Source: an uncultured delta proteobacterium (GTDB taxonomy: Bacteria; Desulfobacterota; Binatia; Binatales; Binataceae). Taken from it: a DNA stretch of 64,000 nt. Of the stretch, positions 25,212-64,000 are shown piece by piece (the first letter of the stretch is position 1; the number at the start of each line of letters is the position of its first letter). The DNA is taken from assembly GCA_963811865.1 (NCBI GenBank), contig CAWESZ010000003.1:359779-423778 (forward strand). Reading direction: 5' to 3'. Under the pieces are notes generated by a model, which ran no database searches, was not told the origin of the DNA, and saw only the letters and a program-made list of their open reading frames with translations. A program made the position numbers and the translations under genes.

Positions 25212-26502
25212 ATGATCGTGAAGCGTAATTCCGCCGCGCTGTTCGCGCGCGCGCAAAAGAAAATTCCCGGCGCAGTGAATTCTCCGGTCCGCGCGTGGAC
25301 CGCGGTCGGCCGCGAACCGCTGTTTATCGATCGCGCCGCAGGTGCGTTGGTCTATGACGCCGACGGCAATCGTTTCATCGACTACGTTGGCTCCTACGGA
25401 CCAGCGATCGTCGGTCACGCCGATCCGCGCGTCATCGCGGCGCTGGCCGATCAGGCGGCGAAAGGACTCAGCTACGGAGCCCCCACGCGAGCTCGAAGTC
25501 GAATTGGCGGAACGGATCAGCGCCGCCATTCCGGTCGCCGAGAAAGTGCGGCTCGTCAGTTCGGGCACCGAGGCCGGGCTGACCGTACTCCGGCTGGCCC
25601 GAGCCATCACGAAGCGTCCAAAGATAATCAAGTTCGACGGATGCTATCATGGCCACAGCGACGCGCTCTTGGTGCGAGCCGGCTCAGGCGCGATGACGCT
25701 GGGCGTGCCGGACAGCGCCGGAGTGCCGGCCGACTTGGCCAAGCTTACGCTAGTCGTGCCGTACAACTCGTTAGAGGCCGTCGAGCGCCAGTTCGCGATC
25801 GCGCCGGCCGAGATTGCTGCGGTGATCGTCGAGCCGGTCGCGGCGAATATGGGCGTGGTGCCTCCCGCGCGGGATTTTCTCAAGGATCTCGGTGCGCTCG
25901 CGCATCGCCACGGTGCGCTGCTGATCTGCGACGAAGTTATCACCGGGTTTCGCCTTCGCTTCGGCGCCGCCTATCCGATCTTCGACGCCGAGCCCGACCT
26001 GCTTATGCTCGGCAAGGTGATCGGTGGCGGGATGCCGATCGGAGCGGTCGCGGGCCGCGCCGACCTGATGGATCAGCTCGCGCCGGTCGGGCCCGTCTAC
26101 CAGGCTGGCACGCTCTCGGGAAATCCGCTGTCGGTGCGCGCCGGGTTGAAGACGCTGGAGATTCTCGAACAACCGGGAACCTACGAGCAGCTCGAGGCCG
26201 CCGGCGCAAAGCTGGAGGCCGGCTTCGTCGCGGCCTTGAAAGACGCAGGTGAGATGGGATGCGTCAGCCGCGCCGGCTCGCTCCTCACCCTGTTCCTCGG
26301 CGTCGAGCGGGTCGAGAATGCCGAGGATGCGCGCCGCTCGGATACCAGGAAGTTCGCGCGCTTTTTCCAGGCGATGCTCGATCGCGGCATCTACTTGCCG
26401 CCTTCGCAGTTCGAGGCGCTGTTCGTCTCGCTTGCGCATAGCGAGGCCGATCTGGAGCAGACTATCGTCGCGGCCCGCGAATCCATGCGGAGTCTGGGCT
26501 GA
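25212..26502 (+). pseudogene. hemL: glutamate-1-semialdehyde 2,1-aminomutase; single frameshift at C5 run ~25490-25494
   Basis: Frame 1 (25212-) reads ...[77 protein letters not shown]. Frame 2 continues [29 protein letters not shown]... to the PLP-lysine region and a C-terminus at 26502. One extra C in GCCCCCACGCGAG reconciles them. Confidence 0.85.
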
Positions 26503-26523
26503 ACGGCAGAGGCGGCAAACCCG

Positions 26524-26740
26524 ATGGCGCTCCCATGGACCAAAATGGTGAAATACTCCGCGATCGGCACGGAGTTCGTCTCGCCGATTATCGTCGGGCC
26601 CGATCGTGGGCCATTATATCGATTTGCACTTCGGCACCGATCCCATGTTTACGCTCGTGATGTTCCTGCTGGGATTGTTTGCGGGCGGTTACAACCTGTT
26701 TAGAGAGGTCAAGAATCTCCAGAGAGATATGAAGGAGTGA
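26524..26740 (+). pseudogene. AtpZ/AtpR-like small F0-associated membrane protein; one frameshift
   Basis: MVKYSAIGTEFVSPIIVG (frame 1) then HYIDLHFGTDPMFTLVMFLLGLFAGGYNLFREVKNLQRDMKE* (frame 2) together match the ~60-aa AtpZ/AtpR family found upstream of atpI. Shift near 26607-26612 (GGGCC). Confidence 0.45.
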
Positions 26741-27123
26741 TGGCGGCGATTCCGACTATCGAATCGATCCAGCGGACGAATCTCATTCTGGTCGCTGCGA
26801 CTGCCACGGCGCTGGCGCTCTTTGACACGCTTGGCGCCGGGTTCGGCTGCCTGCTGGGCGGAGCAGTCGTGATCGGGAATCTCTACATCCTGGGCCTGCT
26901 CGGCCGCGCCGTGATCGGAGCGGCCGGCGGTGGCGCGATGGCGAACCGCGCCGGGCTGCTCGTGATTCCCCTGAAGCTCCTGCTGATCGTCGTGCTCGTC
27001 TACCTGGTCTTCAAGCACGCGCATATCGACCCGCTGGGCTTCGGCGCGGGAGTATTGACTCAGTTGCTCGCGATATCTATTCAGACTTGGCGCGCCGCGA
27101 TACGTCCGGCTGAGGCGCCATAA
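26737..27123 (+). CDS. atpI: ATP synthase protein I (AtpI-like small polytopic membrane protein)
   Basis: 128 aa, hydrophobic, directly upstream of atpB. Start overlaps the stop of the preceding small gene. Confidence 0.5.
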   Translation: MMAAIPTIESIQRTNLILVAATATALALFDTLGAGFGCLLGGAVVIGNLYILGLLGRAVIGAAGGGAMANRAGLLVIPLKLLLIVVLVYLVFKHAHIDPLGFGAGVLTQLLAISIQTWRAAIRPAEAP

Positions 27124-27137
27124 TTTGAGGTTGAATC

Positions 27138-27832
27138 TTGGGACATCCGGTTAATCTGCTCGAGCTTCTCGGTCGCGGAGCAATCCCCGAGGTGCTGGTG
27201 GGCACCTGGATCGTGATGGCGCTGTTGCTGGTTTTCGGCTTGATGGCGCGCAGCGCGCTGGCGGCGGTCGGCGATCCCACCGTTCCCGATGAAGGCATCA
27301 CCTTGCGCTCAATCGCGGAGGTGCTGGTGGAATGGCTCGACGGTTTCGTCGCCGGCGTGCTGGGTACTCACGGCGCGTCGCGATCTGGTGCCGTTTTTGG
27401 GCACTCTGTTCCTGTTTATTTTGGCCTGCAATATTTTCGGACTGATTCCGGGTATGGAGCCGCCGACCAGCTATTCCGACCTGACTTTCGCCCTCGGGAC
27501 GGTGTGCTTCGCGTTCTACATTTACCAGGGGCTGAAGGCCAATGGCGTTGGGCTACTTGCGGAGTTTTCTGGGGCCCATGCTGTTGCTGGCGCCGCTGAT
27601 GCTGCCGATTGAATTGGCCGATAATCTTTTCCGGCCTTTTTCCCTGGGCGTGCGTCTTTACGCCAACATGTTCGCCGATCACCAGGTGCTCAGAATCTTC
27701 ACCGGGCTGACCAAGCTGTTCATCCCGCTGGCGTTTTATGCGTTGGGCGCAATTGTCTGCGTGATCCAGGCCCTAATCTTCATGGTGCTAACCATGAGCT
27801 ACATCAAGCTCGCGCAAAGCCACGAGCATTAA
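27138..27832 (+). pseudogene. atpB: F0F1 ATP synthase subunit a; two frameshifts
   Basis: Three consecutive frames (27138.., 27289.., 27542..) read MGHPVNLLELLG...SIAEVLVEWLDGFVAGVLG / DLVPFLGTLFLFILACNIFGLIPGMEPPTSYSDLTFALGTVCFAFYIYQGLKANGVGL / LGYLRSFLGPMLLLAPLMLPIELADNLFRPFSLGVRLYANMFADHQVL..., including the conserved Arg-containing helix (LGVRLYANM). Confidence 0.85.
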
Positions 27833-27948
27833 TTAATTCGCAACCAACCGCGGTTCGCGCCCCGGCTCAAGATGCCGGTGGTGGAAGAGGATGACAGAGG
27901 CGGATCAAGAACGTGGCGACGGCCGGGGTTATCAAGGAGGACGGTAGG

Positions 27949-28285
27949 ATGGTTCGACGATTTGGAATGGTATTGAGCGCGGCATCTCTGATGCTGCTCG
28001 CATCGCCGCTGATGGCGATGGCACAGGAGGCGGCCGCCGGGGGTGCGGTCAGTCCGCTAAGGGCTGGTCTGATTGCTCTGGCGGCGAACATTGGTATTGG
28101 CATCGCTGCGTTTGGCAGCGCCATCGGCCAGGGTCGGATGGTGGCCGTCGGCGATGGAATCGATCGGCCGTAACCCCAACGCCGCCGGTCAGATCTTCAC
28201 CCCGATGATCATCGGCCTGGCTTTCATCGAAGCCCTGACTTTGTACGCCCTGGTTATCGCCTTCTTCCTGCAGGCCAAGATCTAA
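27949..28285 (+). pseudogene. atpE: F0F1 ATP synthase subunit c with N-terminal extension; one frameshift
   Basis: Frame 1 [62 protein letters not shown], then frame 2 [44 protein letters not shown], with the carboxylate helix. Shift ~28140. Confidence 0.8.
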
Positions 28286-28294
28286 TCACGAACA

Positions 28295-28338
28295 GGATTT
28301 CGTTCGGAGCAAAATTTCGTTCGCAAAATTTCGTTCGA
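28295..28338. repeat. three tandem copies of a ~14-nt unit (A)AAATTTCGTTCG between atpE and its terminator
   Basis: GGATTTCGTTCGGAGC AAAATTTCGTTCGC AAAATTTCGTTCGAG. Confidence 0.5.
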
Positions 28339-28477: not shown

Positions 28478-30049
28478 ATGCTTGAACTCGAGTGGATTTT
28501 AGTCTTGCTCCTGGGTGCAGTCCTGTTGGCCGCCCTGGCGCGCAGGATTGGATGCTCCCTCACCGGCACTGCTGGCGCTCGGCGGTGCGGCAGTTGCCCT
28601 TGTAAAGCATGGACCGCGCTTGTCTCTCGACCCGGAATTGGCGCTCGCGTTGTTTGTCGCGCCGGTCCTGATGGACGCCGCGTTCGACAGCTCGTTGCGG
28701 GATCTCCGCGAGACCTGGTTTCCCATCAGCTGCCTGATCGTGATCGCAGTCACGGTGACGACCTCGGCGGTAGCCTTGGTGGCTCACTGGCTGGTGCCTG
28801 CCATGCCCTGGTCGGTCGCCGTCGTATTGGGTGCCGTAGTGGCGCCGCCCGACGCAGCCGCCGCCACGGCGATCCTGAAGGAAGTCAAGCTTCCCCATCG
28901 GCTGATGGTCGTCCTGGAAGGTGAAAGTCTTCTTAACGACGCCAGCGCCCTGCTGATCTACAGGCTGGCCGTCGCGGCCACGGTCGCGCACCTTGGCTCT
29001 GCGCGCCGCGGTGGCTTTGACCCTGGCGCTGGTTCTGGCCGGCAGCGTTGCAGTGGGCGTCGTTTTCGCGCTCGTGTCTCGACAACGTTGTGCCGCGTTT
29101 TTCCGATGTGCCCAGTTCGATCATCATGTAATCATCGGCACCTTTGGCGTGTGGATTGTTGCCGATCGCCTGGGCCTGTCCGGCGTGTCGACGATCGTGA
29201 CTTTTGCCGTCATCGTGTCGCGCCGCTCTCCGTTCCGGATGCCGCCGCGGTTCGAGTGCCGTCTTATGCGGTCTGGGAAACGGTAGTCTTTCTGCTCAAT
29301 GCGCTCGCCTTCGTCCTGATCGGCCTCCAAGTCGGCCCGATTCTGGACCGGCTTGGTCCCGCGCAACGCGTACCAGCTTTCGCCTTCGCGGCAGCCGTGC
29401 TGGTCACCACTATGCTGGCGCGGGCCGCCTGGGTAATGACCTGCAACCGGGCCCTATGGCTGACCAACCTTATCCTCGCGGAACGCACCCCGCAAACGTT
29501 TGCCACGCCACCGCTCAAACGCGCTGCCGTCGTTGCATGGTGCGGAATGCGCGGCATTGTAACGCTCGCGGCCGCACTCGCTCTGCCTAACGGATCAGGC
29601 GGCGCGCCGGCTTTTCCTTATCGTGACGTGATCGTGCTGACCGCTTTCACCGTCGTTTTGGGCACGCTGGTTATACAGGGTCTCTCACTCCGTCCGCTGG
29701 TGCTGGCGCTGGGACTGGACGAAGACGAAGCGGTCGGAGACGAGACCCGCGCTGGCCGGGAAGAGATATTCAAAGCCGCGCTGAGAGTCTGGGTGAGCTG
29801 GACACCGAGGCGGCTGCGGCGCTACATCGCGAATACTCGGACGTATTGGGCCGCGTCGACGGTTCCGGCGGACCGCGGCCGGAAGCACGCCAGGCTGAGG
29901 CGGCTATGCGCGAACGCTCCCGAGCCGCAGCGCGCGAAAGGCTGGCTCAGTTAAGGCTCACCGGCGTGATAGCCGATTCAACTTTTCAGCAATTGGAAGC
30001 CGAGCTGGACCTGGTCGAGCTCGCCGCAGAAGTCCGCAGCCGCTGGTGA
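28478..30049 (+). pseudogene. CPA1-family Na+(K+)/H+ antiporter (NhaP-type); at least five frameshifts
   Basis: Segments in three frames: MLELEWILVLLLGAVLLAALARRIG / ...LALFVAPVLMDAAFD...LLNDASALLIYRLAVAATVA / ...GVWIVADRLGLSGVSTIVTFAVIVS / ...AVWETVVFLLNALAFVLIGLQVGPILDRL...GMRGIVTLAAALALP / C-terminal ...LTGVIADSTFQQLEAELDLVELAAEVRSRW* (ORF 29846..30049). Confidence 0.7.
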
Positions 30050-30067: not shown

Positions 30068-30830
30068 TCATTCTCTGCGCTTGGTGCCCTCCAGGACCTC
30101 GAACGGGCTGCGGCGCCGCTCGCGCCTGAGCAGGACGTAGGTCGCGCCGGCGCCGCCGTCAGCCGCCCGCGCGCTCGCGAACGCCAGCACGTATCCCGCC
30201 AGCGCCCGCTGCGAGAGCCAAATCGTCGTCGCGTGCTTCAACACCGGATGGCCGCCCGGTGAGCGAAGGCCCCGGCCGTGCACCACCAGCACCATCCGCA
30301 GCCCCTTGCGCACCGATTCCAGAATGAAAACCGTCAACGCTTCTTTCGCGGCGCTCTGAATCTTGCCGTGAAGATCGATATGCGCCTGGACGGCGAATTC
30401 GCCCCGCCGCAGCCGCGTAACCAACCGTGGATCGAGCCCGACCCGCGCGCCTTCGACGTACTCGTCGGTCTCGCTGATATCGAACGGGGCCTGTCCCGAT
30501 ATCAGGTCGGAGAGCTGCGCGAGCACCTCGGAATCCTCGCTGACGATCGCGCGAGTCACCTCGGGTTCGAGCGGATCGAGTCCTGCCGACGCCGTCGAGC
30601 GGCCGCACGCCTTCCAGCGCCGCGCGCAGAATCGCCGCCTCGTCCGGCGCGCCGGCCTCACTCGCGGCTGCTGACGAGGCCGATGCGCCTTTAGCCTCCG
30701 GCTTGGCCGGTGCGCCGCGCGCATGTTCCTGGAGCAGTTTCTTGAGACCCTTGAAGGGCGACGTGAAGACCGGTTTGGGAGTCTTCGGCCGCTTCGGCTC
30801 GCGCCGATCGGATTTACGTTTCTTGCGCAC
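30068..30830 (-). pseudogene. Smr-domain protein (small MutS-related endonuclease-like); one frameshift
   Basis: C-terminal Smr domain FAVQAHIDLHGKIQSAAKEALTVFILESVRKGLRMVLVVHGRGLRSPGGHPVLKHATTIWL in ORF 30068..30724. The N-terminal basic region (VRKKRKSDRREPKRPKTPKPVFTSPFKGLKKLLQEHA...) is in ORF 30159..31079. Tentative GTG start 30830. Confidence 0.55.
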
Positions 30831-30999: not shown

Positions 31000-33477
31000 A
31001 TGCGTAAAGCCCTTGCTGTCGCGGGCGCCGTGATCGTGTTGCTCGTCGCGATCCTGGCGTTCGCGATCCTGAGCCTCAACCGTATTATCAGCGAAGACCG
31101 CGCCTATGTGCTGGGCAAGCTCAGCGCCGTGCTCGGGCGCCCGTCGAGGTACAGGACGTTACCGCCAGCCTCGGATGGGGCGTCGTGCTGGATATCACCG
31201 GGCTCCAGGTCGCGGATGATCCGGCCTTCTCGCCATTGCCGATGGTGCAGGCGTCGGAGGTCGTCGGCGAAGCGGACTTGCTGCCACTTCTGATCGGCCA
31301 TCTGCGCCTGCGCCGGCTCGTATTCAAGGACCTGCAGGTCGAGTCGTTCGCGATCAGGGTGGCGAGGTCAATTTCGCCGTGCTCGGCAAACATCGGCGCG
31401 CGAAAGCGCCGCCCTCGGGAACTTTGGCTCCAGCCAATCCGCCGGCCGGAAAACCCTCCAGCGAGGTCGCCGAGACTGCCCCGCACGCTGAAAAGAAGCA
31501 CTCCAATAATATGGCCGCGCTTGAGCGATTCGCGCTCGATACCTTAAGCATCCAGAATGCGACGGTCTCCTATACCGACCTCGCCATCGGCGGCGAACCG
31601 CTTCAAGTGACCGCGATTGATCTGAAATCAGCCAATTTAGCGCCACTCAACCCTTCGCTATCGCGGGCAAGCTGGCCACATTCGCCGCCGATCAGAATCT
31701 GGTGTTGTCGGGCGAGATTGGTCCGCTGGTGGGCGACGACGGCAAGCTCGACACGCGCGCGCTTCCGCTCGATCTGAAGGCCTCGATCGGCCCGATCGCG
31801 CTGGACGAATTGCGTCAGATCGCGGCCCTCGCCCGCGTGATTCCCGGCCCGCTTATCGATCTCCGATCCGACGCAGGCGACGGCGACGGTTACCGGCAGT
31901 CCGGTCGCACTCAACTTCAGCCTGGACGGCGGACCTCAGCGCTTCGCGCGTCGCGTACGGCTCGATCTTCGACAAGCCCGCGAGCGTGCCGCTCAAACTC
32001 TCGGCTGCTGGGTCGCGCTCCAACGGCGCGATCGGTATCGATCTGGCGACGCTCACGCTCGCGAGCCTCGAACTGAAAGCCTCGCACCTTCGCATCGGCG
32101 ACGGCGCGATCCAGGTCCGCCTCGACAGCAACCGCTTCGATCTGGCATCAATCGGCAGCACGCTGCCGGTGTCGGCTCGATACAACCCCTCCGGCGCCGC
32201 GGAACTTCACGCCGATGTGCACGCATCGAACTCGAGGCGGTCCGGCGGCGGCGCCCCCTCTGGAGGCGCAGGGGACGTTGGCGTTTACGAGCGTGACCCT
32301 CAAGCCAACCGGTGGCGCGACCGCCGCGGTCGCCAATCTGAGCGGCAATATTCGCTTCACCGGCAACGGCGCCGTCATCGAGCCAACCAGTTCGATCTGG
32401 GCTCGGGCCACGCCCGGATGCAAGCCGAGGTTGGCTCGTTCGATCCACTCAAGGGAAATTTCCAGTTCAACGATGACGCGCTGAAGGTCGCCGAGATCGT
32501 GCCGTCCGAAAATCCGGGACGCCCGAAGAGCTGCGTCAATTATCGGTGGCCGGAACCTTGGGCGGAACGATGAGCGCGCCACAGCTGGATGCGAACCTCA
32601 ACTCGTCCGCCGGATCGATCAACAACGTCGCCTATCAGAATCTGGCGCTCACCGGCGGGTACGGAGATCGACGTGCTGATGTCCGATCACTCAAGCTCAA
32701 CGCGTTCGGCGGCGCGATTGCCGCGTCCGCTACGGCCACGATGACGCCGGCGCGTCCGTTCGAAGCCAGGCTCAGCCTTGACCATATCGACATCCAACAA
32801 GCGCTCGCGTCGCAGAAGTCCAAGGCCGCCGATACGATACGCGGCTTGCTCACCGGGCAAATTCAGCTCTCGGGAAGCGGGGCTGAATTCGAGCAAATCA
32901 AGCCCACGCTACTCGGCGCGGGGAAAGCTTCGATTCAGGACGGCAAGCTGCTCGGCATCAATGTGGTCGCGCAGGGGATGAAGAAGGCGCACGGAATTCC
33001 CGGGATCGGCGATTTGGTGACCCCCGCGATCATCGCGCGCCATCCCGGGGCTGTTCGCTTCACCCGACACCGACATCTCTCAAGCCAGCCTGTCGTTTAC
33101 GATCGCTGACCAGCAGATCGTCTCGCACGATATCAAAGTGCAATCGCCCGACTACGGTGTCGAGGGCGACGGCCGCTTCGACTTCGACCAGCACATCGAC
33201 CTGAAGGCGCGGATTGTTATCGCCAAAGAGCTGAGCGGTGAGCTACGAGGCGAACAAAAGGGCGATCGTGCTGCTGACCAACAAGCAGGGCGAAGTCGAG
33301 ATTCCGCTTCAGATCGTGGGAATGCTGCCCAAGCCCAAGGTCGAGCCGGACATTCAAGCGATTGCCCAGAACGTGCTGGAGGGCAAAGCCAATCAGCTAC
33401 TGGGCGGTATTCTGGGTAAGAAACACAAGGGCTTGGGCAAGCTGTTCGGCGGCTCGCTCGACAAGCTGTTCCATTAG
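31000..33477 (+). pseudogene. AsmA-family outer-membrane biogenesis protein; at least eight frameshifts
   Basis: N-terminus MRKALAVAGAVIVLLVAILAFAILSLNRIISEDRAYVLGKLSAVLGRP (signal-anchor typical of AsmA). Successive fragments in all three frames carry AsmA-like blocks (..LDITGLQVADDPAFSPLPMVQASEVVGEADLLPLL.., ..ATVSYTDLAIGGEPLQVTAIDLKSANL.., ..IRGLLTGQIQLSGSGAEFEQIKPTLLGAGKASIQDGKLLGINVV..). C-terminus ..KLFGGSLDKLFH* at 33477. Confidence 0.6.
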
Positions 33478-33652: not shown

Positions 33653-35715
33653 TCACTTATCCAGGCCGACTTTTTTCAGCAACGCGATGAAGCGCGGCTC
33701 GGAACGAAGCGGGTCGTAGATCTTATCGACCTTGAGGTAGAGCGGCCACCACGAGCGGGCCTCGTAGGCCTTCTCCAGCCCGTCCAGGGCGCGCTGCTTA
33801 TCGCCGATACCTAGATAGATGAGCGCGCTGCACGATGGCGAGACGAATCGGCGCGAAGACATCTGGTTCAGTTCCGCGATGGTCGCCCGGGCCTTGGCGT
33901 GGTCGCCTGACGCCGCGTAGGCGTACCCAAGAAAGCCTGCGACGAAAGGAGGAGAATCCATCGTCCGCGCTTTCTCCAGTTCCACGATCGCTGCGCCGAA
34001 GCTGCCCGCCTCGATGCCGATCCACCCGAGAGTAAACTGACAGAGAAAGGAATTCGGATCCAATTCCAATCCTTTGCGGGCCTGCTCCTTCGCTGCCTCG
34101 TGCTTACCCTGGAGCATAAGCGTCCAAGCCAGGCCATTCGTGTTCCCGGAGGAGAGGGGGTCCAGTTCCCTAGCACGCCTGACTCGGCGAGGGACTCATC
34201 GAATCGCGCTTGATTCGACAAGAGATAGCCATACCATTCATGGGCAAAGGCATAGCTGGGATTGAGCGCTATCGCCCGGCGAAACTCACGCTCGCCTCCC
34301 GCCCAATTCAAGTCGTATTCATACAAAATGACAGCCAGTGAAGCGTGAGCTTCGGCGAGGGAATCGTCAAGCTGCAGGGCTTTTTCCACTGCCGCCTTCG
34401 CCTTTGGCATCACCTCATTGGCCGGAACATACCAGTCATCATCTACAGAGTAAGCGTCGGACAGCCCGGTGTACGCGGGCGCGAAGTTTGGGTCCAACTT
34501 GATCGCCAACTCGAACTGCTCAATGGCTTGGTTGGTTCTTTCCTCAGTGTAGCTGCCTAAGTAATAGCGACCCTTGAGATAAGCCTCGTGGGCCTGGGGA
34601 TTGACCGGGCGGGCCTTGGCGAAGCCCGCCTGCTCATCCGGCGTCAGCTCGATATTGATCTGGCGGGCGATCGCCAGGGACAACTCGTCTTGCAAAGCCA
34701 GTACGTCACGCGAGTCGCGCTCGTAACTGTCCGCCCACAGATGCTTGTCCGCCGGCGCATCGATCAACTGGGCGGTGATCCGCACGCGGTCGCCCGAGCG
34801 GACCACGGAGCCTTCCACGACCGCATCGACGTTGAGCAGTTTGGCGATCTCGGGCGTCGGCGGCCGGTCAGCGCCCTTGAATTGCATCACCGAGCCCCGC
34901 GAGATCACGCGCAGCGCGCTGATCTTCGCGAGGTCGGTGGTCAGCTCGTCGGTCATCCCGTCGGCGAAGTAGTCCTGATTTGGATCACCCGAGAAATTGT
35001 CGAGCGGCAGGACGGCGATCGAGCGGATGAGCCGCGGCTGGGTGGCGACCTGCGGCGCTGAGCCCGATGCGGACAACCGCCATCTTGCGATCTCATAGCC
35101 GAGCGCCGCGATGAGCAGCACCGCGACGCCGGTCGCGAGCACACGGCTCGTCGATCGGGTGATCCGCTCGGTGCGCCGCGGCTCGGGAAGCGTGGCCGCA
35201 GCCAGGGCGTAGACGCGAATCGGGCGCGGGACGTTCTTGAGCCGCTTCTCACCCAAGTCTTTGACGGGCAGCTCGGGCTTGTTGCGGATCTCTTCGTAGA
35301 CGCGCTCCGAAATGTAGATGCCACCGGGCGGCGCCAGCGCTTGGAGCCGCGAGGCGACGTTCACCCCGTCGCCCAGCACGGTGTTGTCGGCGAATAGCAC
35401 GTCGCCGACGTGAATTCCGATCCGCAGCCGCAGCTCGGGGTCATCCTTCAGGGTGGCTTGCAGCTCGCGCGCGCAGCCCACCGCATCGACCACGCTATGA
35501 AAGCTGGAGAGCGTGCCGTCACCGATCTCGCCGATGAGGCGGCCGTTGAATTTGGGGAGCATCGCGCGCAGGTATGCGCGATGGTCGCGGATGGCCTGGA
35601 CGCCCTTCTGCTCATCGCGGCCCATGATCGCGGTGTAGCCGACCACGTCGCTGAACATGATCGCGGCGAGTTCGCGGGTCGGACTGCTGGTCGGTGGATC
35701 GGATGAAGTTGCCAA
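33653..35715 (-). pseudogene. class III adenylate/guanylate cyclase - TM - TPR-repeat protein; at least one frameshift in the TPR region
   Basis: N-terminal cyclase catalytic domain AAIMFSDVVGYTAIMGRDEQ...RIGIHVGDVLFADNTVLGDGVNVASRL. A TM helix, then TPR repeats that continue in ORF 33653..34117 (..YLKVDKIYDPLRSEPRFIALLKKVGLDK*). Confidence 0.65.
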
Positions 35716-35878: not shown

Positions 35879-36504
35879 GTGTTCACCGGAATCATAGAAG
35901 ATTCGCGACCGTCCAGAGTGTCGAGCCGGCCAATCAGGGTGCCTTGCTGACGCTACGGACGGCGTTGCCGCTGGCGCGAATCAAGATTGGCGACTCGATT
36001 GCGGTCAGCGGCGCGTGCCTCACGGTGACCGCGAAGGGACGCGGGACGGTCGCGATGGTGGCCGTCGCGGAGACGCTGCGCCGCACGATCCTGGGCGGAC
36101 TCAAGCCCGGCGATCGGGTGAATCTGGAGCGCTGCCTCACGCTCGCCAAGCCGCTCGATGGCCATCTGGTGGCCGGGCATGTCGACGGCGTCGGGCGGCT
36201 GGTATCGATCAAGCCCGAAGGTGATTCGCGGCTATGCACCTTCGAGGCGCCCGCCGGCACGGTCCGCTATCTGATCGAGAAGGGGTCGGTGGCGATCGAC
36301 GGAATAAGCCTGACGGTGTTTGGCGTGCGCAACCGGCGCTTCAGTTGCGCGCTGATCCCGCACACCCTCAAAACGACGACGCTCGGGCTCAAGCATCCGG
36401 GGGCGATGGTCAATATCGAGAGCGATATGCTCGGCAAGTACGTCGAGCGATTCATGAACCAGCGCGGCGGAAACGGGACCGCGATCACGCCGGGGATCGG
36501 GTAA
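35879..36504 (+). pseudogene. ribE: riboflavin synthase alpha subunit; frameshift near codon 8
   Basis: GTG 35879 VFTGIIED then (other frame) ATVQSVEPANQGALLTLRTALPLARIKIGDSIAVSGACLTV...GHVDGVG...IDGISLTV, the two lumazine-binding repeats of riboflavin synthase. One base missing near 35900. Confidence 0.75.
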
Positions 36505-36509
36505 GAACC

Positions 36510-37079: not shown

Positions 37080-38255
37080 GTGAGCGCCCTCGAAGCATTC
37101 TCGGAGGCGGAGTTGCGGCCCGCCGCCCCTTCGACATTCACCGAGAAGACCTTCTATCTCGAGGAATTCTACGGCAAGAGCCTGCTGTTCGCGCTGATTC
37201 CACCGAGTGCCGAGCGGATGAGCGATCTCGATTCGCTGGTCCGCGCGCTGCGCGAGCTGCGGCGCAACCAGACGCGATGCATCGTGATCGTCTCGATGAG
37301 TGCGCTGCCGCGCCTGATGCGCCGGATGGGCCGGCTCGCGCCGCAGGGACCGCCCCCGATGATCGAACCCGGTGCGCGGGATGCGCTCGCGGCCGTATCC
37401 GCCGGACTCGGCGGTCGCGCGGATCTGGCGGGGGTTGCGCACCGGATCGATCATCGTCGCCGCGACCGAAACCGACGACGCCGCCGACCTCACGATCTTC
37501 GCACAGGAACTCGCGAGCCGCCTGATGGTTTTCAAGCTGGTTCTGCTCGACCGTCAAGGCGGGCTGACCGCCCGCAACGGCGACCGCCTGTCGTTTGTCG
37601 AAGGCCGGCGCATCAACCGCGCGCTGCGTCAGACGCGCGCGAAGCTCCGCCGCACGATTCTGCGCGCCACCGGCCGCGCGCTCAAGGACGGCGTCGGATC
37701 GGTCAATCTCGCCGCGCCGCGAGACGTGTACGAGGAGCTGTTCAGCTACATCGGCACTGGCACGCTCTTCACGGCGCAGCAGTACGGCCAGGTCGGGCCG
37801 ATCGCGATCGACGACTTCGGCGAGGTCGAGGCGCTGATCATGCGCGCCCAGAGCGAGGGTTTTCTGCTCCCGCGCACCGGCGAGGCGAATCGCGGAAATT
37901 TTGCCGTCGTGCTTCGGGTATCGGATCGGGGACGAGCATCTGGCGGGGATCTGCTCACTGTTGACCGAGCCCTACCACCGCGAACGGGCGGGCGAAATCA
38001 CCGCGCTGTACACGCTCACGCGCTTCCAGGGCGAAGGTGTTGCGGCTGAACTCGTGCAGGCAAGTGATGACCGAGGCGCTCGCCCGCCGCTTGCGCTACG
38101 TCTTCGCCTGCACTAGCGCGGAACGCGCGGCGCGCTTCTTCACGCGGCTGGGGTTTCGCCGGGTGACGGCCAGCGAGGTGGCCGGGTCGAAGTGGCGCGA
38201 CTACGATCGGGCGCGGATCGCGCGGCTCGCGATCTTCCGCGCCGACCTCGACTGA
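37080..38255 (+). pseudogene. amino-acid N-acetyltransferase (ArgA-like: amino-acid-kinase-fold domain + GNAT); at least three frameshifts
   Basis: Fragments FYLEEFYGKSLLFALIP.. / ..GSIIVAATETDDAADLTIFAQELASRLMVFKLVLLDRQGGL..FTAQQYGQVGPIAIDDFGEVEALIMRAQSEGFLLPRTGE.. / ..YRIGDEHLAGICSLLTEPYHRERAGEITALYTLTRFQGEGVAAELV / ..FACTSAERAARFFTRLGFRRVTASEVAGSKWRDYDRARIARLAIFRADLD*. Confidence 0.5.
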
Positions 38256-38299
38256 GCTTCCGCGCCGAACCTGTCGATGGGCTCCAGCATTGATCCTCC

Positions 38300-47549: not shown

Positions 47550-47596
47550 GTTCGGCCCAGCCGCGCAGGCAGTCAGACAAGCATTCGTTACGACCA

Positions 47597-51595: not shown

Positions 51596-53917
51596 CTTCG
51601 ACTGACTGCGGGCTTCCGAACGCGTCGTCAGAGATCTGGATCACGTCGTCGTCTTTGCCGTTGATTGAAGGCGAGAAAGTCACCTGGACGGTGCACGGCG
51701 AACCCTTCACCAGTTGCCCGACGCAGCTTTGGCTGACCGAGTAGTCGGAGTTGGAGCTAGAGAAGTCCTGGATCGTTATGGGCACATCATATCGGTTCGT
51801 AATGACAAAGCTCTTCGTGACGCTTGGGTTCGAGCCGTTCATATTGACGCTCCCGAAGTTGAGGGTTTTCGGTTGAATACCCAAAGAACCCACGAAGCCG
51901 GTCCCGAACATTGAGGTGCTCTGGGGACTGTTCGCGGCGTTGTCGTTGAGCGTCAGGGTCGCCGACCGACTGCCAGCGGCCGTGGGCGAGAATGCCACCG
52001 TTAGCTGGCATGAGCCTTCCGCTGCGACCTTGCCGTTGCAGCCGTCGTTTTGAATGACGAAGTCGCCGGCGTTGGAGCCACCCATCGACTCGCCGGTTAT
52101 GCAGACGCCCTGCGTGCTCCTGTTGGTCAAGGTTATGGTCTGGGTGACGGTATCCGCATTCGAGCCGAAGATGACCACGCTGCCGAAGAAGACCGATGCC
52201 GGTCTGACTCTGAGGTTGCGGCCAGTCGGCGCGCAAGGCTGAGGAGTGGGTGTCGGGGTCGGGGGCGCTGGAGTTGGGGCCACAGGTGTCGGCGTAGCCG
52301 TGGGGCTCGGAGGCACCGGAGTCGGAGTTGCTGGTACAGGCGTCGGCGTATCAGTTGGTACTGGTGTCGGACTCGGGCTCGGCGTGGCAATCGGGGTCGG
52401 GGTCGGTGTGGGAGTAGGAGTCGGCGTGGGGGTCGGGGTCGGTGTGGGGGTAGGAGTCGAAGTCTGCGTTGGAGTAGAAGTCGGCACAGCTCCCAGTTCG
52501 TAGGCTCCGACATCGCACGCGGCGCCCACCGGCCGGCCGAAGCCGCGCTCGTCGGTAACCGGCGGCGGGCAGTTGACCGCATCGTCAATCGCCGGGCTTC
52601 CCGCCAGAAGCGCTTCGGTATCGAGGAACAGCGGGCCGCCGTTGTACTGCAAGGGGCCCAGCAGCGGATTGGTGTTCTGCAGATCGCCCCCCACAATCGG
52701 AACGCAGGTCGCTCCACTATCGATATTGTTGCCGTCGGAGTGGATGCCGCCTTCGCAGTTGTCGGGGGTGCCGTTAGAAATGATGCTGTTCTGGACCTCG
52801 ATCTCGCCGCCCGAGCCGAAGGCGCTGCCACCGCCAGCCGCGCTGTTGCCGTTCACGGTCACGCTCTGAATCAACAGATACGAATTGTTCCAGACAGCTC
52901 CGCCGTTGGCGACGGCAGTGTTGGCCGCGAGCGTAGCGTTGGTGAATTCCATGAAGCCGCTGTTCCATGCGGCGCCGCCGTTGCCCCGGAATTGCTGTTG
53001 CTGATGGTGACGTTAGTCACGTAAGTGGAGGTGGAGGGGCTGTTCCAGATGCCTCCGCCGTCCCCGGTCGCCTGGTTGGAATCGAGGGTGGCGTTCTGGA
53101 TTTGGGTCCGGTCGCCGTCGGCGTAGATGGCGCCGCCGTTGGTACCGCTCTGGTTGCTGGAAATAGTGCCGCCACCGGTCGTCGGCGCGGGCTGGTTGCT
53201 GTTGTCCAGATAAACACTCCCGAGACTGTTCCATACCCCGCCGCCCTCGGCGGTCGCAGTGTTGCCGTTAATCGTGTAACTGCCGTCGAAGTAAGTGGAG
53301 CCAGTCTCGTTGGCCAGCCCTCCGCCGGTGACAGCCTGATTGTCCGTGAACGTGACATCGGTCAAATAAACGGCTGAATCATTGTTGAACAGCGCGCCGC
53401 CCGGGCCATTCGTCACGCAATTGGTGATCACGAGGTCGGTCGAGGTGAAGTCACTGTCGGTGACCAGGATCCCGCCGCCGCCATCGCCAGTGGCGTCGAG
53501 ACCATTTTGGACGGTGACGCCGTCCATCTCGAACGTGCCGAAGGACATGTTGAAGACTCCGACCAGCTGATTGCCGTCGATGATGGTGGAGTTGGAGCCG
53601 GCGCCAACAATCGTTACGCTGCTGAACTCCAGGTCCAGCGACGCCCCAATGCTCAGCACGTAGGTGCCGGCGGGAACGTCGATGGTGCTCGTTCCGAAAG
53701 ACGCGTTGGCGGCGTCGATCGCCTCGCGCAGAGCGCAATCGCCGGGATTGCAGGCGCCGCTGTCGCGGTCGGTGGTCGTGGTCACATTAAAGGTGGCGGC
53801 GCCGGATGAACCCGCGCCCGCCGCCAGAAGGAGCAGGACAACCGGAAGAACGATGAACCGGCGGCGCGTGACCGGCGAGGTTTTATCGAGGGTCACGGAG
53901 TGTTCAAGTATGGCCAT
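51555..53917 (-). pseudogene. secreted right-handed beta-helix protein: CSLREA/choice-of-anchor-Q N-terminal region, Pro/Thr linker and two C-terminal choice-of-anchor-D-like Ig-type domains; one frameshift (C4 run 52984-52987)
   Basis: ORFs 52871..53917 (signal peptide; CALREAIDAANA; G/N/T-rich parallel beta-helix repeats GGG.WN, NATL, NS/NQ) and 51555..52952 (..NPLLGPLQYNGGPLFLDTEALLAGSPAIDD...CDVGAYE; PT linker; two ~110-aa domains with F.FGSV....T.T..N.G...L.I........F......C....L..G.SC...V.F.P). An extra C restores ..ISNSNSGGNGGAAWNSGF... Confidence 0.65.
52247..52496 (-). repeat. low-complexity tandem repeats encoding the (TPTP)n linker of the beta-helix protein
   Basis: ACNCCNAC periodicity. 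Produces spurious opposite-strand ORFs 52246..52503 and 52050..53024. Confidence 0.6.
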
Positions 53918-58525: not shown

Positions 58526-60138
58526 TCACATCCTGAAGACGCCGAAGCCTGATACCTCCGCAATCGGCGCGCTCAGCGCGGCCGCGAGGCCGAGCGCGAG
58601 CGCGGCGCGCGTTTCGAGCGGATCGAGCACGCCGTCGTCCCACAGGCGCGCGCTCGAATAGTAACAACTCGATTCGCGCTCGTACTTCTCCAGCGTCGGG
58701 CGCATGAACTCCTGCTGCTCCTTCTCGCTCATGGTCTGGCCGGTGCGCTTTAACTGATCGAGCTTGACCGTCAGCAGCGTATTCGCCGCCTGCTCGCCGC
58801 CCATCACGGAGATCCGCGCGTTGGGCCACATGAACAGCAGGCGCGGCGAGTACGCCCGCCCGCACATCCCATAGTTGCCGGCGCCGTTGCTACGCGCCGA
58901 TGATCACGGTGAACTTCGGCACCTGGGCGTTGGCGACCGCGTTGACCATCTTGGCGCCGTCCTTCGCGATCCCGCCCTGCTCGTAACGCTTGCCGACGAT
59001 GAAGCCGGTGATGTTCTGCAGAAACAGCAGCGGGATGCGGCGCGCGCAGCACAACTCGATAAAGTGCGTCGCCTTGAGGGCCGACTCGCTGAACAGCACG
59101 CCGTTGTTCGCGATGATCCCGACCGGATAGCCGTGGATGCGCGCGAAGCCGGTGACCAGCGTGGTCCCATAGCGCGCCTTGAACTCGTGCATCCGGCTGC
59201 CGTCGACGAGGCGCGCGATCACCTCGCGCACATCGTAGGGCTTGCGCGTATCGGCCGGGATGATCCCGTAAAGCTCGGCCGGATCGTAGTAGGGATCTTC
59301 CGGCTCGTCTGCGTCGGCGGCGCTGACGTCCGCGGTCCCAGGTTGTCCAAAATCGAGCGCGCGATTTCGAGCGCGTGCTCGTCGTCGTCGGCCAGATAGT
59401 CGCTCACGCCGGAGAGGCGGGTGTGAACGTCGCCGCCGCCCAGCTCTTCGGCGCTGACTTCCTCGCCGGTCGCGGCGCGTACCAGCGGCGGACCGGCGAG
59501 AAAGATCGTGCCCTGCTCGCGGACGATCACGTTCTCGTCGCACATCGCGGGCACGTACGCGCCGCCCGCGGTGCAGGAGCCCATCACCACCGCGACCTGC
59601 GCGATTCCGGCCGCCGACATCCGCGCCTGATTGTAGAAAATCCGGCCGAAGTGATCGCGATCGGGAAAGACCTCGGCCTGCAGCGGCAGGAACGCGCCGC
59701 CCGAATCGACCAGGTAGACGCACGGCAGCCGGTTCTCGATCGCGATTTCCTGCGCGCGCAGATGCTTCTTCACGGTGATCGGATAATACGTGCCGCCCTT
59801 GACGGTCGCGTCGTTGGCCACGACCATCACTTCGCGCCCGTGCACCCGTCCGATGCCGGTGACGATTCCCGCCGCCGGCGGGTCGTCTTCGTACATGCCC
59901 CATCCGGCCAGCGCTGAAAGCTCCAGAAACGCGCTCTCGGGATCGAGCAGCCGCTTCACGCGCTCGCGCACCAGCAGCTTGCCGCGCTCGCTGATGGCGC
60001 TTGCGCGCCTCTTCGGAACCGCCGATGCGAATCCGCTCGATGTCCGCGCGCAATTTCTTGACCGCCGCTTCCGTCGACTTCGCGATTGCGCCGGAACTCG
60101 GCGCTCGACGGGTTGATCCGCGATTCGATTCGTTCCAT
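58526..60138 (-). pseudogene. acyl-CoA carboxylase carboxyltransferase subunit (methylcrotonyl-CoA carboxylase beta-like); at least four frameshifts
   Basis: N-terminus [20 protein letters not shown] (60138). ..[91 protein letters not shown].. (59219..60286). ..[60 protein letters not shown].. (58890..). ..[34 protein letters not shown] (58526..58867). Confidence 0.75.
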
Positions 60139-60248: not shown

Positions 60249-62583
60249 ATGCGAGAACGCGATCTCAGAGCGCTCGAATTCGACAAGGTGCTCGCGCTGG
60301 TGGCGGCTTATGCCGCCTCGGAGCCGGGCCGCGCCGTGCTCCTGGCGGCTGCGGCCCTCGACCGACCCGGACGAGGTTCGCGCGCGGCTGCGCCTGACTG
60401 CCGAGCTGGTGGAACTCCGCGCGCACGCGGGCTCGTTCCCGATGCAGGAATTCGCCGACCAGCGCGCAATCCTGCTGGTGGCGGCGCGCGAGGGCGCGGT
60501 GCTCGACGGCGTGGCGCTGGTCGCGGTGCGCGACTTCGTGCTGGCGGCGCGCCAGGCCGAGGCGTTCACCCGCTCGCGGGTCGAGTCGCTGCCAAACCTC
60601 GCGACGCTCGCGCACAGCCTGGTCGCGCCCAAGGAACTCGCCGACGCACTGCTCCGCGCGCTCGAAGACGACGGCGGCCTGCTCGACGACGCCAGCCATG
60701 ACTTAAAGCGCCTGCGCAATCGCTTGCGCGAAGAGCGGGTCGATCTGGAGTCGCGGCTGGTCCGCGCGCTCAACGCGGGCGGGATGGAGCCGTTCGTCTC
60801 GGACAATATCGTCACGGTCCGCAACCGCCGCTTCGTCCTGCCGCTCAAGCTCAACTACGCAGAGAAGCTCGACGGGATCGTGCAGGACCGCTCGATCTCG
60901 GGCGAGACGCTGTTCGTCGAGCCGATGTGGGCGGTCGAGCTGAACAACCGCCTGATGATGCTCGAGCGGGAAGCCGAAGCCGAGGAGCGGCGCATCCTGG
61001 CCCATCTGACCGCGATGGTGCGCGGCTACGCGCGCGAGCTGGCGATCACGTTCGAAGCGATGGTCGCGCTGGACGCCCTCAACGCGCGCGCGATCTTCGG
61101 CGAGCGCTTCGGGCGCGATCGAGCCGGAGATCACCGAGGGCGCGATGGAACTGATCGACGCGCGCCATCCGCTGCTGATCCAGAGCGGGCGCGAGGTGGT
61201 GCCGATCGACGTCCGAATTCCGCGCCGGCCAGCGCGGAATCGTAATCTCGGGCCCCAATACCGGCGGCAAGACCGTCGCGCTCAAGACCGTCGGGCTGTT
61301 CGCGCTGATGGCGCAGGCCGGGATGCTGATTCCGGCCGATCGCCAAAGCCGCGTGACCGTGTTTCGCAGCGTGTTCGCCGATATCGGCGACGCGCAGTCG
61401 ATCGAGGCCAATCTGTCGAGCTTCGCGGCTCATATCGTCAACCTGACCGAGATCATCCGCGCGCTGGCCGAACCTGCGCTGATAATTCTCGACGAGCCGG
61501 GCGCCGGTACCGATCCGGCCGAAGGCGCCGCGCTGACGATCGGCTTGATGAACTATCTTGCGAGCCGCCGATTGCGTGCTCGCGATCGCGACCCACTCGA
61601 CCGCGGTGAAACTGCACGCTTACTCGCGCGCCGGCTTCGAGGCGGCTGCGGTCGACTTCGACCCCGAGCGCATGACGCCGCTCTATCGGCTCAAGCCGCA
61701 CACGATCGGACAGAGCTATGGCCTGGCGGTGGCGCGCCGCCTGGGACTGCCTGCCGAAATTATCCGCGCCGCCGAGGAGGCGCGGCCGGCCGGAAGCGTC
61801 GAGCTGGAGCAGGCGCTGCAGCGGCTGGACGCCGAGCGCGCCGAGTTGCGCACTCGAATCGAAACGCTGCGCGAGCGTGAAGCCGCGCTCGAAGAGACCC
61901 GTAGCCTCGCGACCGAGGAGGCGGAGCGCGCACGCCACAAGATCGCGGCGGACCGCGCGCGAATCCGCGCCGACGCGGCCGGCCTGATCGAGCAGATGCG
62001 GCGCGAAGGCAGCGAGCTGCTGGTCGAACTCAAAGTAAAAACGAAGTCGCAGCGCGATCTGAGCCGCTTCGTCGCCGAGGCGCAGGAAAAGTTGGAGCAG
62101 GTCGCGCCGGTGCCGCCGCCAGCGCAACCGCTCGCCCCGCAGGAGCCGCTCAAGGTCGGCGACCAGGTCGAGCTCGGGCAGATTCGCGGCGAGTTGCTGA
62201 TCCTTGAGGAGGGTCGCGCTGTGATCACACGCGGCGGGATGCGGATCGAAGTGGCGCCCGAACGGCTGCGGCGCGCGGCCCAGCAGGCCGCGGCATCGCG
62301 AGCGCCCAAGGTCAGCGTGACCGCGGCCGAGCATACGGAGCGGCAGGAGCTGATGCTGATCGGGATGCGCACCACCGACGCGTTGCGCACGCTCGAGGAA
62401 TTTCTCGACCAGGCCTACCTGACCAATCGCCCCGAGGTGCGCATCGTCCACGGCGTGGGTTCCGGCGCGCTCAGGAAGGCGGTGCGCGAGTATCTCGGCA
62501 GCTCGCCGTACTGCGCAGCGTTCCGCGAAGCCGACCCCCATCTCGGCGGCGCCGGCGCCACGGTCGTGCAGCTTAATTTGTAG
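60249..62583 (+). pseudogene. mutS2: endonuclease MutS2 (MutS domains + C-terminal Smr); at least five frameshifts
   Basis: [31 protein letters not shown].. (60249), core in 60310.., ..MELIDARHPLL.. (61145), ..MAQAGMLIPADRQSRVTVFRSVFADIGDAQSIEANLSSFAAHIVNLTEIIRALAEPALIILDEPGAGTDPAEGAALTIGLMNYL.. (61308), coiled-coil plus Smr ..ELMLIGMRTTDALRTLEEFLDQAYLTNRPEVRIVHGVGSGALRKAVREYL.. ending 62583. Confidence 0.75.
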
Positions 62584-62769
62584 CGGATCCTTCCCGAAGT
62601 AGGGCCGGCGTCTCCTTTGGGTAACTCCAGAGCCAGACAAATCGCTCCGCGTAGATTCTTCGCCTCCGGCAGACGCCTCAGCTCAGAATGACAGCGCCCG
62701 CGCCCGTTTGTCTGTCATACTGAAGCGAGCGTAGCGAAGCCGAAGGATCAACGCGAAGCGATGATGGTT

Positions 62770-62915
62770 TGGCTGAGTCACGCAAAGGTCTCGATAGGGC
62801 TTACGAAGCCCGCTCGCAACAGTTGATCATTCTCGAGGTCGATAAGGTCTACGACCCGCTGCGTTCCGAGCCGCGCTTCATCGCGTTGCTGAGAAAAGTC
62901 GGCCTCGACCGGTGA
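62770..62915 (+). pseudogene. orphan fragment duplicating the last ~47 aa (final TPR) of the adenylate cyclase-TPR protein
   Basis: ..AESRKGLDRAYEARSQQLIILEVDKVYDPLRSEPRFIALLRKVGLDR* versus cyclase C-terminus ..ALDGLEKAYEARSWWPLYLKVDKIYDPLRSEPRFIALLKKVGLDK*. No start codon or upstream TPRs. Confidence 0.35.
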
Positions 62916-63176
62916 CGCCAGTGCCTTGAAACCACCCCTGACTCAGAGCGCCGCGCTTCTGTCCTATGCCAGGGTCCAGACTCAATCAGAACCTTCCCAT
63001 TTAGGGCCATGCGAGCGGAGACATTGAATCTCAGGGCAGGTGTTGTTATGCCGGGGAAGGAACGGCAACTTTTGGCCCAAAGCCGCCGCTTGCCGCCAAT
63101 GCCGGGAATGACCATGTTGGACCATTGTTGACCAGGTCGCGAGCGCCAGACCTGTCCGGATTTGAAGGAGGAAGCG

Positions 63177-63566
63177 ATGAAGCAAGTTCCGAGCGGAACA
63201 GAACTCGCCCGCCCATTCATGCCTGCAAAAGACTTTGATCTCTCCAAGAACTTCTATGAGACGCTGGGCTTCGAAAAGCTTCTTGACGGAGACGTGGCGA
63301 TCTTCAGGGCCGGTTCCGGCGGTTTCATACTTCAGCGCCATTATCAAAAGGACTGGGCTGAAAACTTTATGATGCAGCTCATGGTCGACGATCTTGACGC
63401 TTGGTGGACCCACATTGATGGGCTTGATCTGCCCGGAAAATTCAATGTTCAGCCTCCGCGCGCGCCAGCCATGCAGCCATGGGGCCTTCGGATCGCTTAT
63501 GTCGTGGATCCATCCGGAGTGCTTTGGCACATTGGCGAACGGCGCGATGGGGCAATACAGGACTAG
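63177..63566 (+). CDS. VOC-family (glyoxalase/bleomycin-resistance fold) protein
   Basis: ATG 63177 preceded by GAAGGAGG. 129 aa. Size, beta-alpha-beta-beta-beta pattern and motifs (FYETLGFEKL...; ..LRIAYVVDPSGVLWHIGE) fit the VOC superfamily. Local GC (~52%) is lower than the window average. Confidence 0.6.
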   Translation: MKQVPSGTELARPFMPAKDFDLSKNFYETLGFEKLLDGDVAIFRAGSGGFILQRHYQKDWAENFMMQLMVDDLDAWWTHIDGLDLPGKFNVQPPRAPAMQPWGLRIAYVVDPSGVLWHIGERRDGAIQD

Positions 63567-63652
63567 CGCACCCACGCCGCAAAAGGACTGCTGCCTTCGT
63601 ATTCGCGAAGGACCATTTGGGGCGATTTCGGCTTCGCACGCGCGCTGCTCAG

Positions 63653-64000
63653 ACGCGAGTCGGCGCGGCGGCTTTCCTGCCAATCAGCATCCACTCGGCG
63701 AGATTCAACCTGACGTTGCGGAGGCTTTCGTCGCCCGCGAGCCGGGTAAGCGTGCGATCCATCTCGGCGCGGACGGATTCCGGCGCCACCTTGAACCAGC
63801 GCACGCGCACCCATTCGTCGATATCCGACCATCCAACGGGACCAGATTCCAGGATTGGGACCTGAAGGGCAGCGCCGCGGCGTGCGCCCGCACGAAGTGC
63901 GCACGGCCACCGATACGCCCGCGCGCTTCCGCCAGCATCGCGAGGGTCAGGTCGGCGCCCGCGGTCCGCTTCGCCACGCCGATCGGCCTCTCCGAAGCAG
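63653..64000 (-). pseudogene. class I SAM-dependent methyltransferase, 3' part (gene continues beyond the window); one frameshift
   Basis: Minus-strand frames read ..VGV..DLTLAMLAEARGRIGG.AHFVRAHAAALPFRSQSWNLV (methyltransferase post-II/III region: ..adAe.LPF.d.SFDlV) and, in another frame, ..DIDEWVRVRWFKVAPESVRAEMDRTLTRLAGDESLRNVRLNLAEWMLIGRKAAAPTRV* ending ~63655. Confidence 0.35.

Follow-up and report, generated by a model that had tools for sequence, protein, structure and literature searches.

The stretch of DNA examined here, called the window, comprises 64,000 nucleotides (nt) of contig CAWESZ010000003.1 from an uncultured bacterium of the Binatia, and many genes between its positions 16.8 and 64 kb are broken by small insertions and deletions (indels). 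Approximately 46 frame-breaking indel events were counted there, in 20 genes. We conclude, with a probability of about 0.93, that these frameshifts arose as consensus errors of the deposited assembly rather than by mutation in the organism, since assemblies from the same population carry all 19 of the covered genes intact. The comparison relied on seven Joint Genome Institute (JGI) metagenome contigs from six other samples, which belong to the same population, share 96-99.9% DNA identity with the window and lack every indel that they cover.

Intact counterparts of the broken genes

The JGI contigs span 2.7-22.7, 24.0-45.7, 49.3-62.1 and 63.1-64 kb of the window. Contig L081 (23 kb) is collinear with positions 24025-45725 at 98.1% identity and L082 (7 kb) with 32643-39674 at 99.4%, whereas L164, L165 and L166 cover 49253-62109 at 99.2-99.9%, L167 covers 2744-22673 at 96-97% and L169 covers 63147-64000. 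To count the events, each reference gene was walked through the alignment and compensating gaps within 30 nt were netted out. The resulting tally includes 43 clusters in reference-covered genes, two events in the methyltransferase gene cut by the window end and one in a GT39-like glycosyltransferase gene. Except for the latter, which lies outside contig coverage, all of the affected genes (19 of 20) are intact in the JGI contigs. The lengths of the reference products, in amino acids (aa), are 429 for HemL, 71 for AtpZ, 127 for AtpI, 231 for AtpB, 114 for AtpE, 523 for NhaP, 254 for Smr, 825 for AsmA, 687 for the cyclase, 208 for RibE, 390 for the GNAT protein, 495 for PMT, 240 for RsmG, 333 for Jag, 787 for the repeat protein and 535 for MCC-beta.

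Wherever contigs overlap, both of them contradict the window at every indel. Indeed, L081 and L082 jointly disagree with it at eight isolated events and at the cluster 38288-38330, and the overlaps of L164, L165 and L166 do so at 52983, 58892 and 59310/14. Reversion of the indels only was sufficient to obtain a full-length open reading frame (ORF) in all 25 genes tested, with a protein identity of 97.6-100% (80-86% for atpB/atpE). After this reversion, a single internal stop was left among the 25 genes, at aa 217 of NhaP, adjoining a deletion. Since it is due to a C-to-T change two bases from the deleted T at 29131, this stop is part of the error cluster.

The window also shows a clear excess of indels over substitutions: 30 frameshifts occur within 13 kb at less than 1% divergence, compared with none in 13 genes that diverge by 1.3-3.3% (one of them by 14%). 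The gene of the AsmA-like protein carries ten frameshifts for only 11 substitutions (0.44% from the intact allele), and the latter are distributed over the codon positions as 3:4:4. Such evenly spread substitutions look like errors themselves, whereas truly diverged genes display a third-position excess and no frameshift. At 38288-38330, where L081 and L082 do not differ from one another, the window has eight extra bases in 43 nt, which is raw-read-like noise. In addition, a truncated product of 615 aa from the adenylate cyclase-TPR gene is on record in NCBI/ENA, from a contig of 548,130 bp, indicating that the errors belong to the deposited assembly and not to the analysed copy.

These data agree with the earlier note on this DNA, which had proposed an assembly artefact rather than genome decay and had estimated about 40 frameshifts in 16.8-64 kb. 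The per-gene counts given there were equalled or exceeded, with six events in NhaP (at least five in the note), ten in AsmA (at least eight), four in the 390-aa GNAT-domain protein, GNAT390 (at least three), and four in MCC-beta (at least four). As was also claimed, essential genes are hit: hemL, atpB and atpE are all broken, and the Pfam matches of hemL and atpB are split between frames. The advice to merge the ORF fragments and to disregard pseudogene labels was correct.

Uneven distribution along the window

The frameshift clusters are concentrated in two patches. The zone 25.4-38.4 kb contains 30 clusters (2.3 per kb) and the zone 58.8-62.1 kb contains eight (2.4 per kb), while two clusters (0.28 per kb) are found in the covered parts of 16.8-25.4 kb, three (0.18 per kb) in those of 38.4-58.8 kb and none (0 per kb) at 2744-16800. 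Within the first patch, the density reaches about 5 per kb at 28.3-33.3 kb and about 12 per kb at 37.3-38.4 kb. Heterogeneity across the five zones is highly significant (G-test, G = 69, p = 3e-14), and if the rate of the other zones applied to the 14-kb clean zone, this zone would be free of events with a probability of 3e-7. The idea of uniformly random errors that spared the first 16.8 kb by chance, for which nothing speaks beyond the overall rate of about one event per kb, is refuted by both of these values and can be set aside as virtually impossible. The suggestion of the earlier note that the error process is regional is thereby upheld.

The guanine-cytosine (GC) content does not differ between patches and clean stretches. 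As predicted for the stretch upstream of 16.8 kb, the 13 genes over 2744-16800 are devoid of frameshifts. They nevertheless differ from L167 by hundreds of substitutions with a third-position bias, amounting to 1.3-3.3% in 12 genes and to 14% in a sulfotransferase gene. Several genes downstream had likewise been described as clean. This was confirmed over the full length of mnmG, fumC and the CoA-transferase gene and in the contig-covered parts of mnmE, yidC and dnaN; for dnaA, 621 nt are covered by a contig and the rest was judged from an unbroken ORF of 465 aa.

Sequence context of the errors

The breaks had been assigned to homopolymers or GC runs, which turned out to be largely wrong. Among the 37 isolated single-base events, only six are located in reference runs of at least 3 nt, and 17 consist of an inserted base that differs from both neighbours, so the indels are not homopolymer-length changes as a rule. 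Moreover, the length was changed in only two of the 98 reference runs of at least 5 nt. A homopolymer explanation was ruled out on these grounds. The hemL break, for instance, is not in a C5 run but is a C inserted adjoining GAGCTC, and the break in the S53-like peptidase gene is not in a G6 run but corresponds to TT changed to TTT. On the other hand, two of the three residual errors at 38.4-58.8 kb have shortened a long homopolymer (G6 to G5 and C5 to C4).

The palindrome GAGCTC is a preferred site of error. In the patches, seven of its eight reference sites are altered, four by indels and three by substitutions (to GGGCTC, GAACTC and GAGATC), compared with a random-hexamer baseline of 5.8%. 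This enrichment is significant in a site-centred test (p = 1.6e-8; approximately 3e-5 when corrected for 2080 hexamers), which was decisive, an event-centred k-mer test having given only marginal significance after correction. In the clean zones, one of six sites is altered, to GAGTTC. The motifs CTCGAG, GATC and AGCT were mildly enriched and are not claimed as error motifs. The GAGCTC excess would have the appearance expected of modified-base miscalls in nanopore data. No DNA methyltransferase gene was found in the window, the gene at 63.6-64 kb having a weak Methyltransf_25 match.

Two substitutions in clean zones affect the inner C/G of GAGCT(C), namely GAGCTT to GAACTT at 40087 and GAGCTC to GAGTTC at 42872. 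They are changes of the kind expected from miscalled or deaminated 5-methylcytosine.

The indel signs, for their part, are arranged in kilobase-scale runs: 11 runs were observed versus 22-25 expected (z = -3.7 to -4.4).

Origin of the damage

The alternative to an assembly artefact is real pseudogenisation, in which a decaying lineage or a dying duplicated segment would have accumulated the frameshifts as genuine mutations. As the reference contigs come from other samples, a private lineage is formally conceivable, and the window-private, third-position-biased substitutions in part of 58-62 kb indicate that the strain is truly distinct there. However, the 46 events in 20 genes have flanks that are 99.6-100% identical to intact alleles, as many as ten events occur in one gene nearly without substitutions, and the only nonsense change in 25 genes abuts a deletion. 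The breaks affect hemL and the genes for F0 subunits a and c, and eight bases are inserted within 43 nt (38288-38330). The block-wise indel sign and the bias of the errors to a motif have no evolutionary rationale, and 13 genes nearby contain no frameshift although their real divergence is 5-10 times higher. A signature of relaxed selection was looked for and not observed, the broken genes being 97.6-100% protein-identical to the intact alleles. We therefore consider pseudogenisation highly improbable. Programmed frameshifting was rejected as well, with up to ten sites per gene and none common to the orthologues in L081, L082 and L164.

Several points weigh against reading the frameshifts as consensus errors. 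We infer the error status from other samples' assemblies, that is, from different DNA molecules of 96-99.9% identity. Part of the 58-62 kb patch is real third-position-biased strain divergence, so not all differences are errors. Classic residual errors of nanopore data are homopolymer errors, unlike the isolated single-base events of the window, with only six of 37 in runs of at least 3 nt. Finally, the GAGCTC association is based on eight sites, and the GT39-like event has no counterpart in a reference contig.

Assuming consensus errors, their patchiness could come from an effective depth that was low in places, from the collapse of strains, from uneven polishing or from gap filling, and the sequence features suggest nanopore or another noisy long-read technology as the platform. 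A version of the uneven polishing proposed in the earlier note, in which a long-read draft was polished with short reads and effectively corrected only where such reads mapped, is conceivable but less likely than not. The clean stretches are indeed 99.9-100% identical to the JGI contigs, and the atpB-atpE allele and the region at 58-62 kb, which diverges by 2%, are both error-rich and are places where reads of a dominant strain would map poorly. Nevertheless, the densest patch, NhaP-AsmA (28.3-33.3 kb), shows no divergence that could block mapping, parB and mnmG are diverged yet clean, and 38.4-58.8 kb retains the G6-to-G5 and C5-to-C4 changes and a GAGCTC substitution, as in an unpolished, well-covered long-read consensus. 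A long-read-only assembly, with very few reads in places because depth dropped locally, the path followed a minor strain or a strain bubble collapsed, such that errors were not voted out, has about an even chance of being the cause. The raw-read-like density at 38288-38330, the same-sign indel runs on the kilobase scale and the partial overlap of error-rich stretches with alleles private to the window (in the atp cassette and at 58-62 kb) all speak for it. So does the nearest public relative, the metagenome-assembled genome (MAG) L002, which is equally damaged, with split mnmG and parB, as does an ENA assembly with contig_N-type names that contains a 95%-identical glyoxalase copy in an unrelated context. 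Against it, the patch boundaries bear no mark in the sequence, and damaged stretches resemble clean ones in their GC content. The partial coincidence of error-rich stretches with strain-specific sequence would be compatible with a failure of short-read polishing as well as with a minor-strain path of low depth, but given the exceptions mentioned above (NhaP-AsmA, parB and mnmG) neither fully explains the patchiness.

The following course of events can be proposed for such consensus errors. The source would be a 548-kb contig from a metagenome, belonging to a Binatia-like bacterium and most likely assembled from noisy long reads; most of the contig would be near-correct, whereas 25.4-38.4 and 58.8-62.1 kb keep indels and some substitutions at 2-5 per kb. 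Fainter damage would be left at 16.8-25.4 and 63.8-64 kb, and one spot at raw-read-like density. A well-supported long-read consensus would retain only systematic errors, at long homopolymers and at a probable modification motif. The damaged stretches, on the other hand, could have escaped correction or, as the constant indel sign may suggest, could have very few reads behind them or a different correction history.

Individual affected genes

The most upstream break is found in the gene of an S53/sedolisin-like peptidase with a Pro-kumamolisin domain (15747..18525, minus strand), which has an additional T at 16861. Separately from this event, positions 16356-16580 of the gene show a third-position GC of 0.96-0.97 and in-frame length differences of -24, +6 and +6 nt relative to L167, and likely encode a variable low-complexity linker. 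A GNAT acetyltransferase gene (20804..21881, plus strand; 358 aa in L167) carries an additional A at 21751.

The next affected genes are located on the plus strand. In hemL (25212..26502), which is intact in L081, a C is inserted at 25488, immediately 5' of GAGCTC, and the Pfam domain Aminotran_3 is consequently found in two different frames (domain positions 7-59 and 71-374). The AtpZ/ATPase_gene1 gene (26524..26740), called atpR-like in the earlier note, contains an inserted C at 26595. The gene of the F0 a subunit, atpB (27138..27832), has a net +1 at 27352-27375 and lacks two bases at 27548-9, with ATP-synt_A positions 55-119 and 114-217 in two different frames, and that of the F0 c subunit, atpE (27946..28285), has an additional T at 28148, within the stretch encoding the conserved GQG...AMESIGRNP. 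The gene of the NhaP Na+/H+ exchanger (28478..30049) is broken by insertions at 28553, 29005 and 29080 and by deletions at 29131, 29241 and 29782, all of one base; besides these six frame-breaking events, it carries a compensated indel pair at 29187/29190.

Further downstream, an Smr-domain protein gene (30068..30830, minus strand) lacks two bases at 30574-30575. The gene of the AsmA-like protein (31000..33477, plus strand) contains ten 1-nt events, namely deletions at 31139, 31338, 31623, 32390 and 32505 and insertions at 31853, 31931, 32229, 33044 and 33245. The adenylate cyclase-TPR gene (33653..35715, minus strand) has lost a G at 34182, within GAGCTC, a deletion contradicted by both L081 and L082. 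In ribE (riboflavin synthase; 35879..36504, plus strand), a C is missing at 35902. The gene of GNAT390, the argA-like gene of the earlier note (37080..38256, plus strand), carries single-base insertions at 37365, 37888, 38058 and 38254, and the homologue from L002 falls in four window frames across 37.1-38.25 kb. It is followed by the gene of a PMT-family glycosyltransferase, formerly arnT-like (38277..39772, plus strand), the start of which contains the eight extra bases of 38288-38330.

Between the two patches, rsmG/gidB (41772..42493, minus strand) has a single-base deletion at 42006 (G6 to G5), and the gene of the GT39-like PMT_2 glycosyltransferase (45994..47636, minus strand) switches frame once, near 46575-46590 (CCGGGGCC). 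The evidence for this last event is intrinsic only (Viterbi frame plot, Pfam and three-frame translation). The Jag/KhpB gene (50105..51105, plus strand) lacks a G at 50188. In the gene of a 787-aa repeat/Ig-like protein, which had been taken for a beta-helix protein (51555..53917, minus strand), one base is missing at 52983 (C5 to C4), where both L164 and L165 contradict the window.

In the second patch, the gene of an MCC-beta-like carboxyltransferase of 535 aa (58526..60138, minus strand) has single-base insertions at 58892, 59990 and 60074 and two extra bases at 59310/59314; L164 and L166 concur against the window at 58892 and 59310/59314. The gene of a MutS2-like protein (60249..62583, plus strand) contains single-base insertions at 60346, 61111, 61223 and 61575. 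At the window end, the cut gene of an S-adenosylmethionine-dependent methyltransferase (63570..64000, minus strand), which has a weak Methyltransf_25 match, shows a 4-nt insertion at 63825-63828 and a single-base deletion at 63940 in the alignment with L169. Intergenic indels of the same kind are present as well: two additional bases (GA) at 28337..28338, single-base deletions at 30056 and 30974 and a single-base insertion at 60245.

Divergent alleles and other strain variation

Between codon ~22 of atpB and the stop of atpE (27200..28285, plus strand), the identity to L081 drops to ~63-90% per 50-nt window. The boundaries of this 1.08-kb segment are sharp, both flanks being 100% identical to L081. 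Third codon positions account for most of its substitutions (81 of 136 and 49 of 71), and no stop codons are left in it once the indels are reverted. This bias and the open frame after reversion indicate a genuine divergent allele with four error indels on top. The segment may result from a real homologous replacement of the F0 a/c cassette, or else the consensus may be chimeric here. Similarly, the region 57.8-62.1 kb displays window-private substitutions, mostly at third positions, plus ten insertions. It is tempting, though only tentative at this stage, to suggest that the GAGCTC miscalls might be the footprint of a SacI-type methyltransferase active in the population and that the atpB-atpE segment might have been acquired by homologous replacement from a distant relative.

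Other differences involve genes apart from the frameshifts. A sulfotransferase-like gene (9077-9766) is 14% divergent from L167, compared with 2-3% for its neighbours in an exosortase/glycosyltransferase cluster, and its indels are compensated in frame; judging from this pattern, it looks like a second allele replacement. L167 carries at 4136-5942 an extra gene for a 569-aa protein of unknown function that has no counterpart in the window (junction 6878-6880), which is a strain-specific presence/absence difference. An 87-nt copy of the 3' end of the cyclase-TPR gene (90.8% identity) is located at 62832-62918, within an ORF of 48 aa (62769-62915), and seems to be what is left of the C-terminus of a paralogue. 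Finally, an intact glyoxalase/VOC-family gene is found at 63177-63566, amid weak coding periodicity. A 95% identical copy is present at L168:9835-10395 (ENA ERZ25039587 contig_97906) in a different context, adjoining toxin-antitoxin-like genes, and this gene may be mobile.

The window and the choice of references

The GC content of the window is ~63%, with a strong third-position periodicity. Its gene order (dnaN-dnaA ... hemL-atpZIBE ... parBA-rsmG-mnmG-mnmE ... rpmH-rnpA-yidD-yidC-jag) corresponds to the origin-proximal region of a Binatia-like bacterium, and no tRNA or Rfam families were found within it. The nearest genomes in the GTDB species set are the MAG MFD01138.bin.1.15 (L002), with an MnmG identity of 79%, and a Candidatus Binataceae MAG (74%). 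A scan of contigs from the GTDB-set genomes was rejected as a source of base-level references, as it yielded distant relatives only (best MnmG identity 79%), and so was a scan of metagenome contigs, which were too distant (CoA-transferase identity of at most 82%). In L002, mnmG (L002:9992-11885) and parB (L002:14207-15248) are also split across frames, which makes this MAG unsafe for judging gene intactness in the lineage.

The references were reached by a protein search with the cyclase-TPR ORF, followed by the same approach for the other segments. The cyclase search gave a JGI protein of 687 aa (P0001) that is 100% identical to the window ORF along 83% of the latter. Two further candidates were dropped, L163 because of its 90% identity and L168 because it has only 560 bp in common with the window, in a different context. 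Looking up exact copies of the MnmG, MnmE, FumC, L34 and truncated 615-aa cyclase proteins of the window gave no match. A Viterbi frame map based on codon usage found most frame switches and served as a guide only, the strand being wrong in places (around rsmG and after DsbA).

Comparison with known systems and significance

Indel-driven frameshifts have been described in long-read assemblies (PMC9262707), and assemblies and MAGs from nanopore or PacBio continuous long reads (CLR) are known for such frameshifts and truncated ORFs, a problem that the IDEEL test quantifies and that tools such as proovframe aim to correct (PMC9262707; PMC8442456; bioRxiv 10.1101/2021.08.23.457338). The window resembles these cases, which typically concern MAGs of low coverage: conserved genes, essential ones included, are split by indels of 1-2 nt, and reversion restores the proteins. 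It differs from them in that most events are not homopolymer-length changes, the damage is confined to patches of 3-13 kb and the indel sign is constant over long runs. Nanopore errors also occur at methylation motifs, for example at Dcm CCWGG in Klebsiella (PMC8442456). Similarly, the window errors pile up at one palindrome, GAGCTC, with seven of eight patch sites altered, and several of these changes turn C into T or G into A at the inner cytosine; in this likeness, the motif, the modification and the platform are only presumed. Unlike in such cases, ~80% of the window errors lie outside GAGCTC, and the motif is mostly read correctly in the clean zones.

True genome decay with many pseudogenes is found in host-restricted bacteria, such as Mycobacterium leprae and recent insect symbionts. 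The window shares with it the presence of many broken genes side by side. However, the same population harbours intact alleles of 99.6-100% identity, the breaks extend to essential genes, nonsense changes and a relaxed-selection signal are nearly absent, and single genes carry multiple frameshifts without substitutions. Furthermore, the window is GC-rich and has normal coding periodicity.

Collectively, these comparisons indicate that the window frameshifts are the well-known indel problem of long-read MAGs, of which the confinement to patches and the GAGCTC bias are less usual aspects. Since the damage is confined to patches, genome-wide quality scores may look acceptable while single loci are unusable. 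Most of the window errors would escape a homopolymer-aware correction; an external check that works well is the comparison with short same-population contigs obtained from other samples. The biological novelty of the frameshifts is nil, and all that remains of mild interest is the possible footprint of GAGCTC methylation and the putative allele replacement at atpB-atpE. The relevance of the finding concerns annotation rather than biology: 20 genes, hemL, those of the F0 a/c subunits, ribE, rsmG and mutS2 among them, would be miscalled as pseudogenes or split ORFs, and any genome reduction, missing pathways or novel short proteins inferred from this MAG would be wrong.

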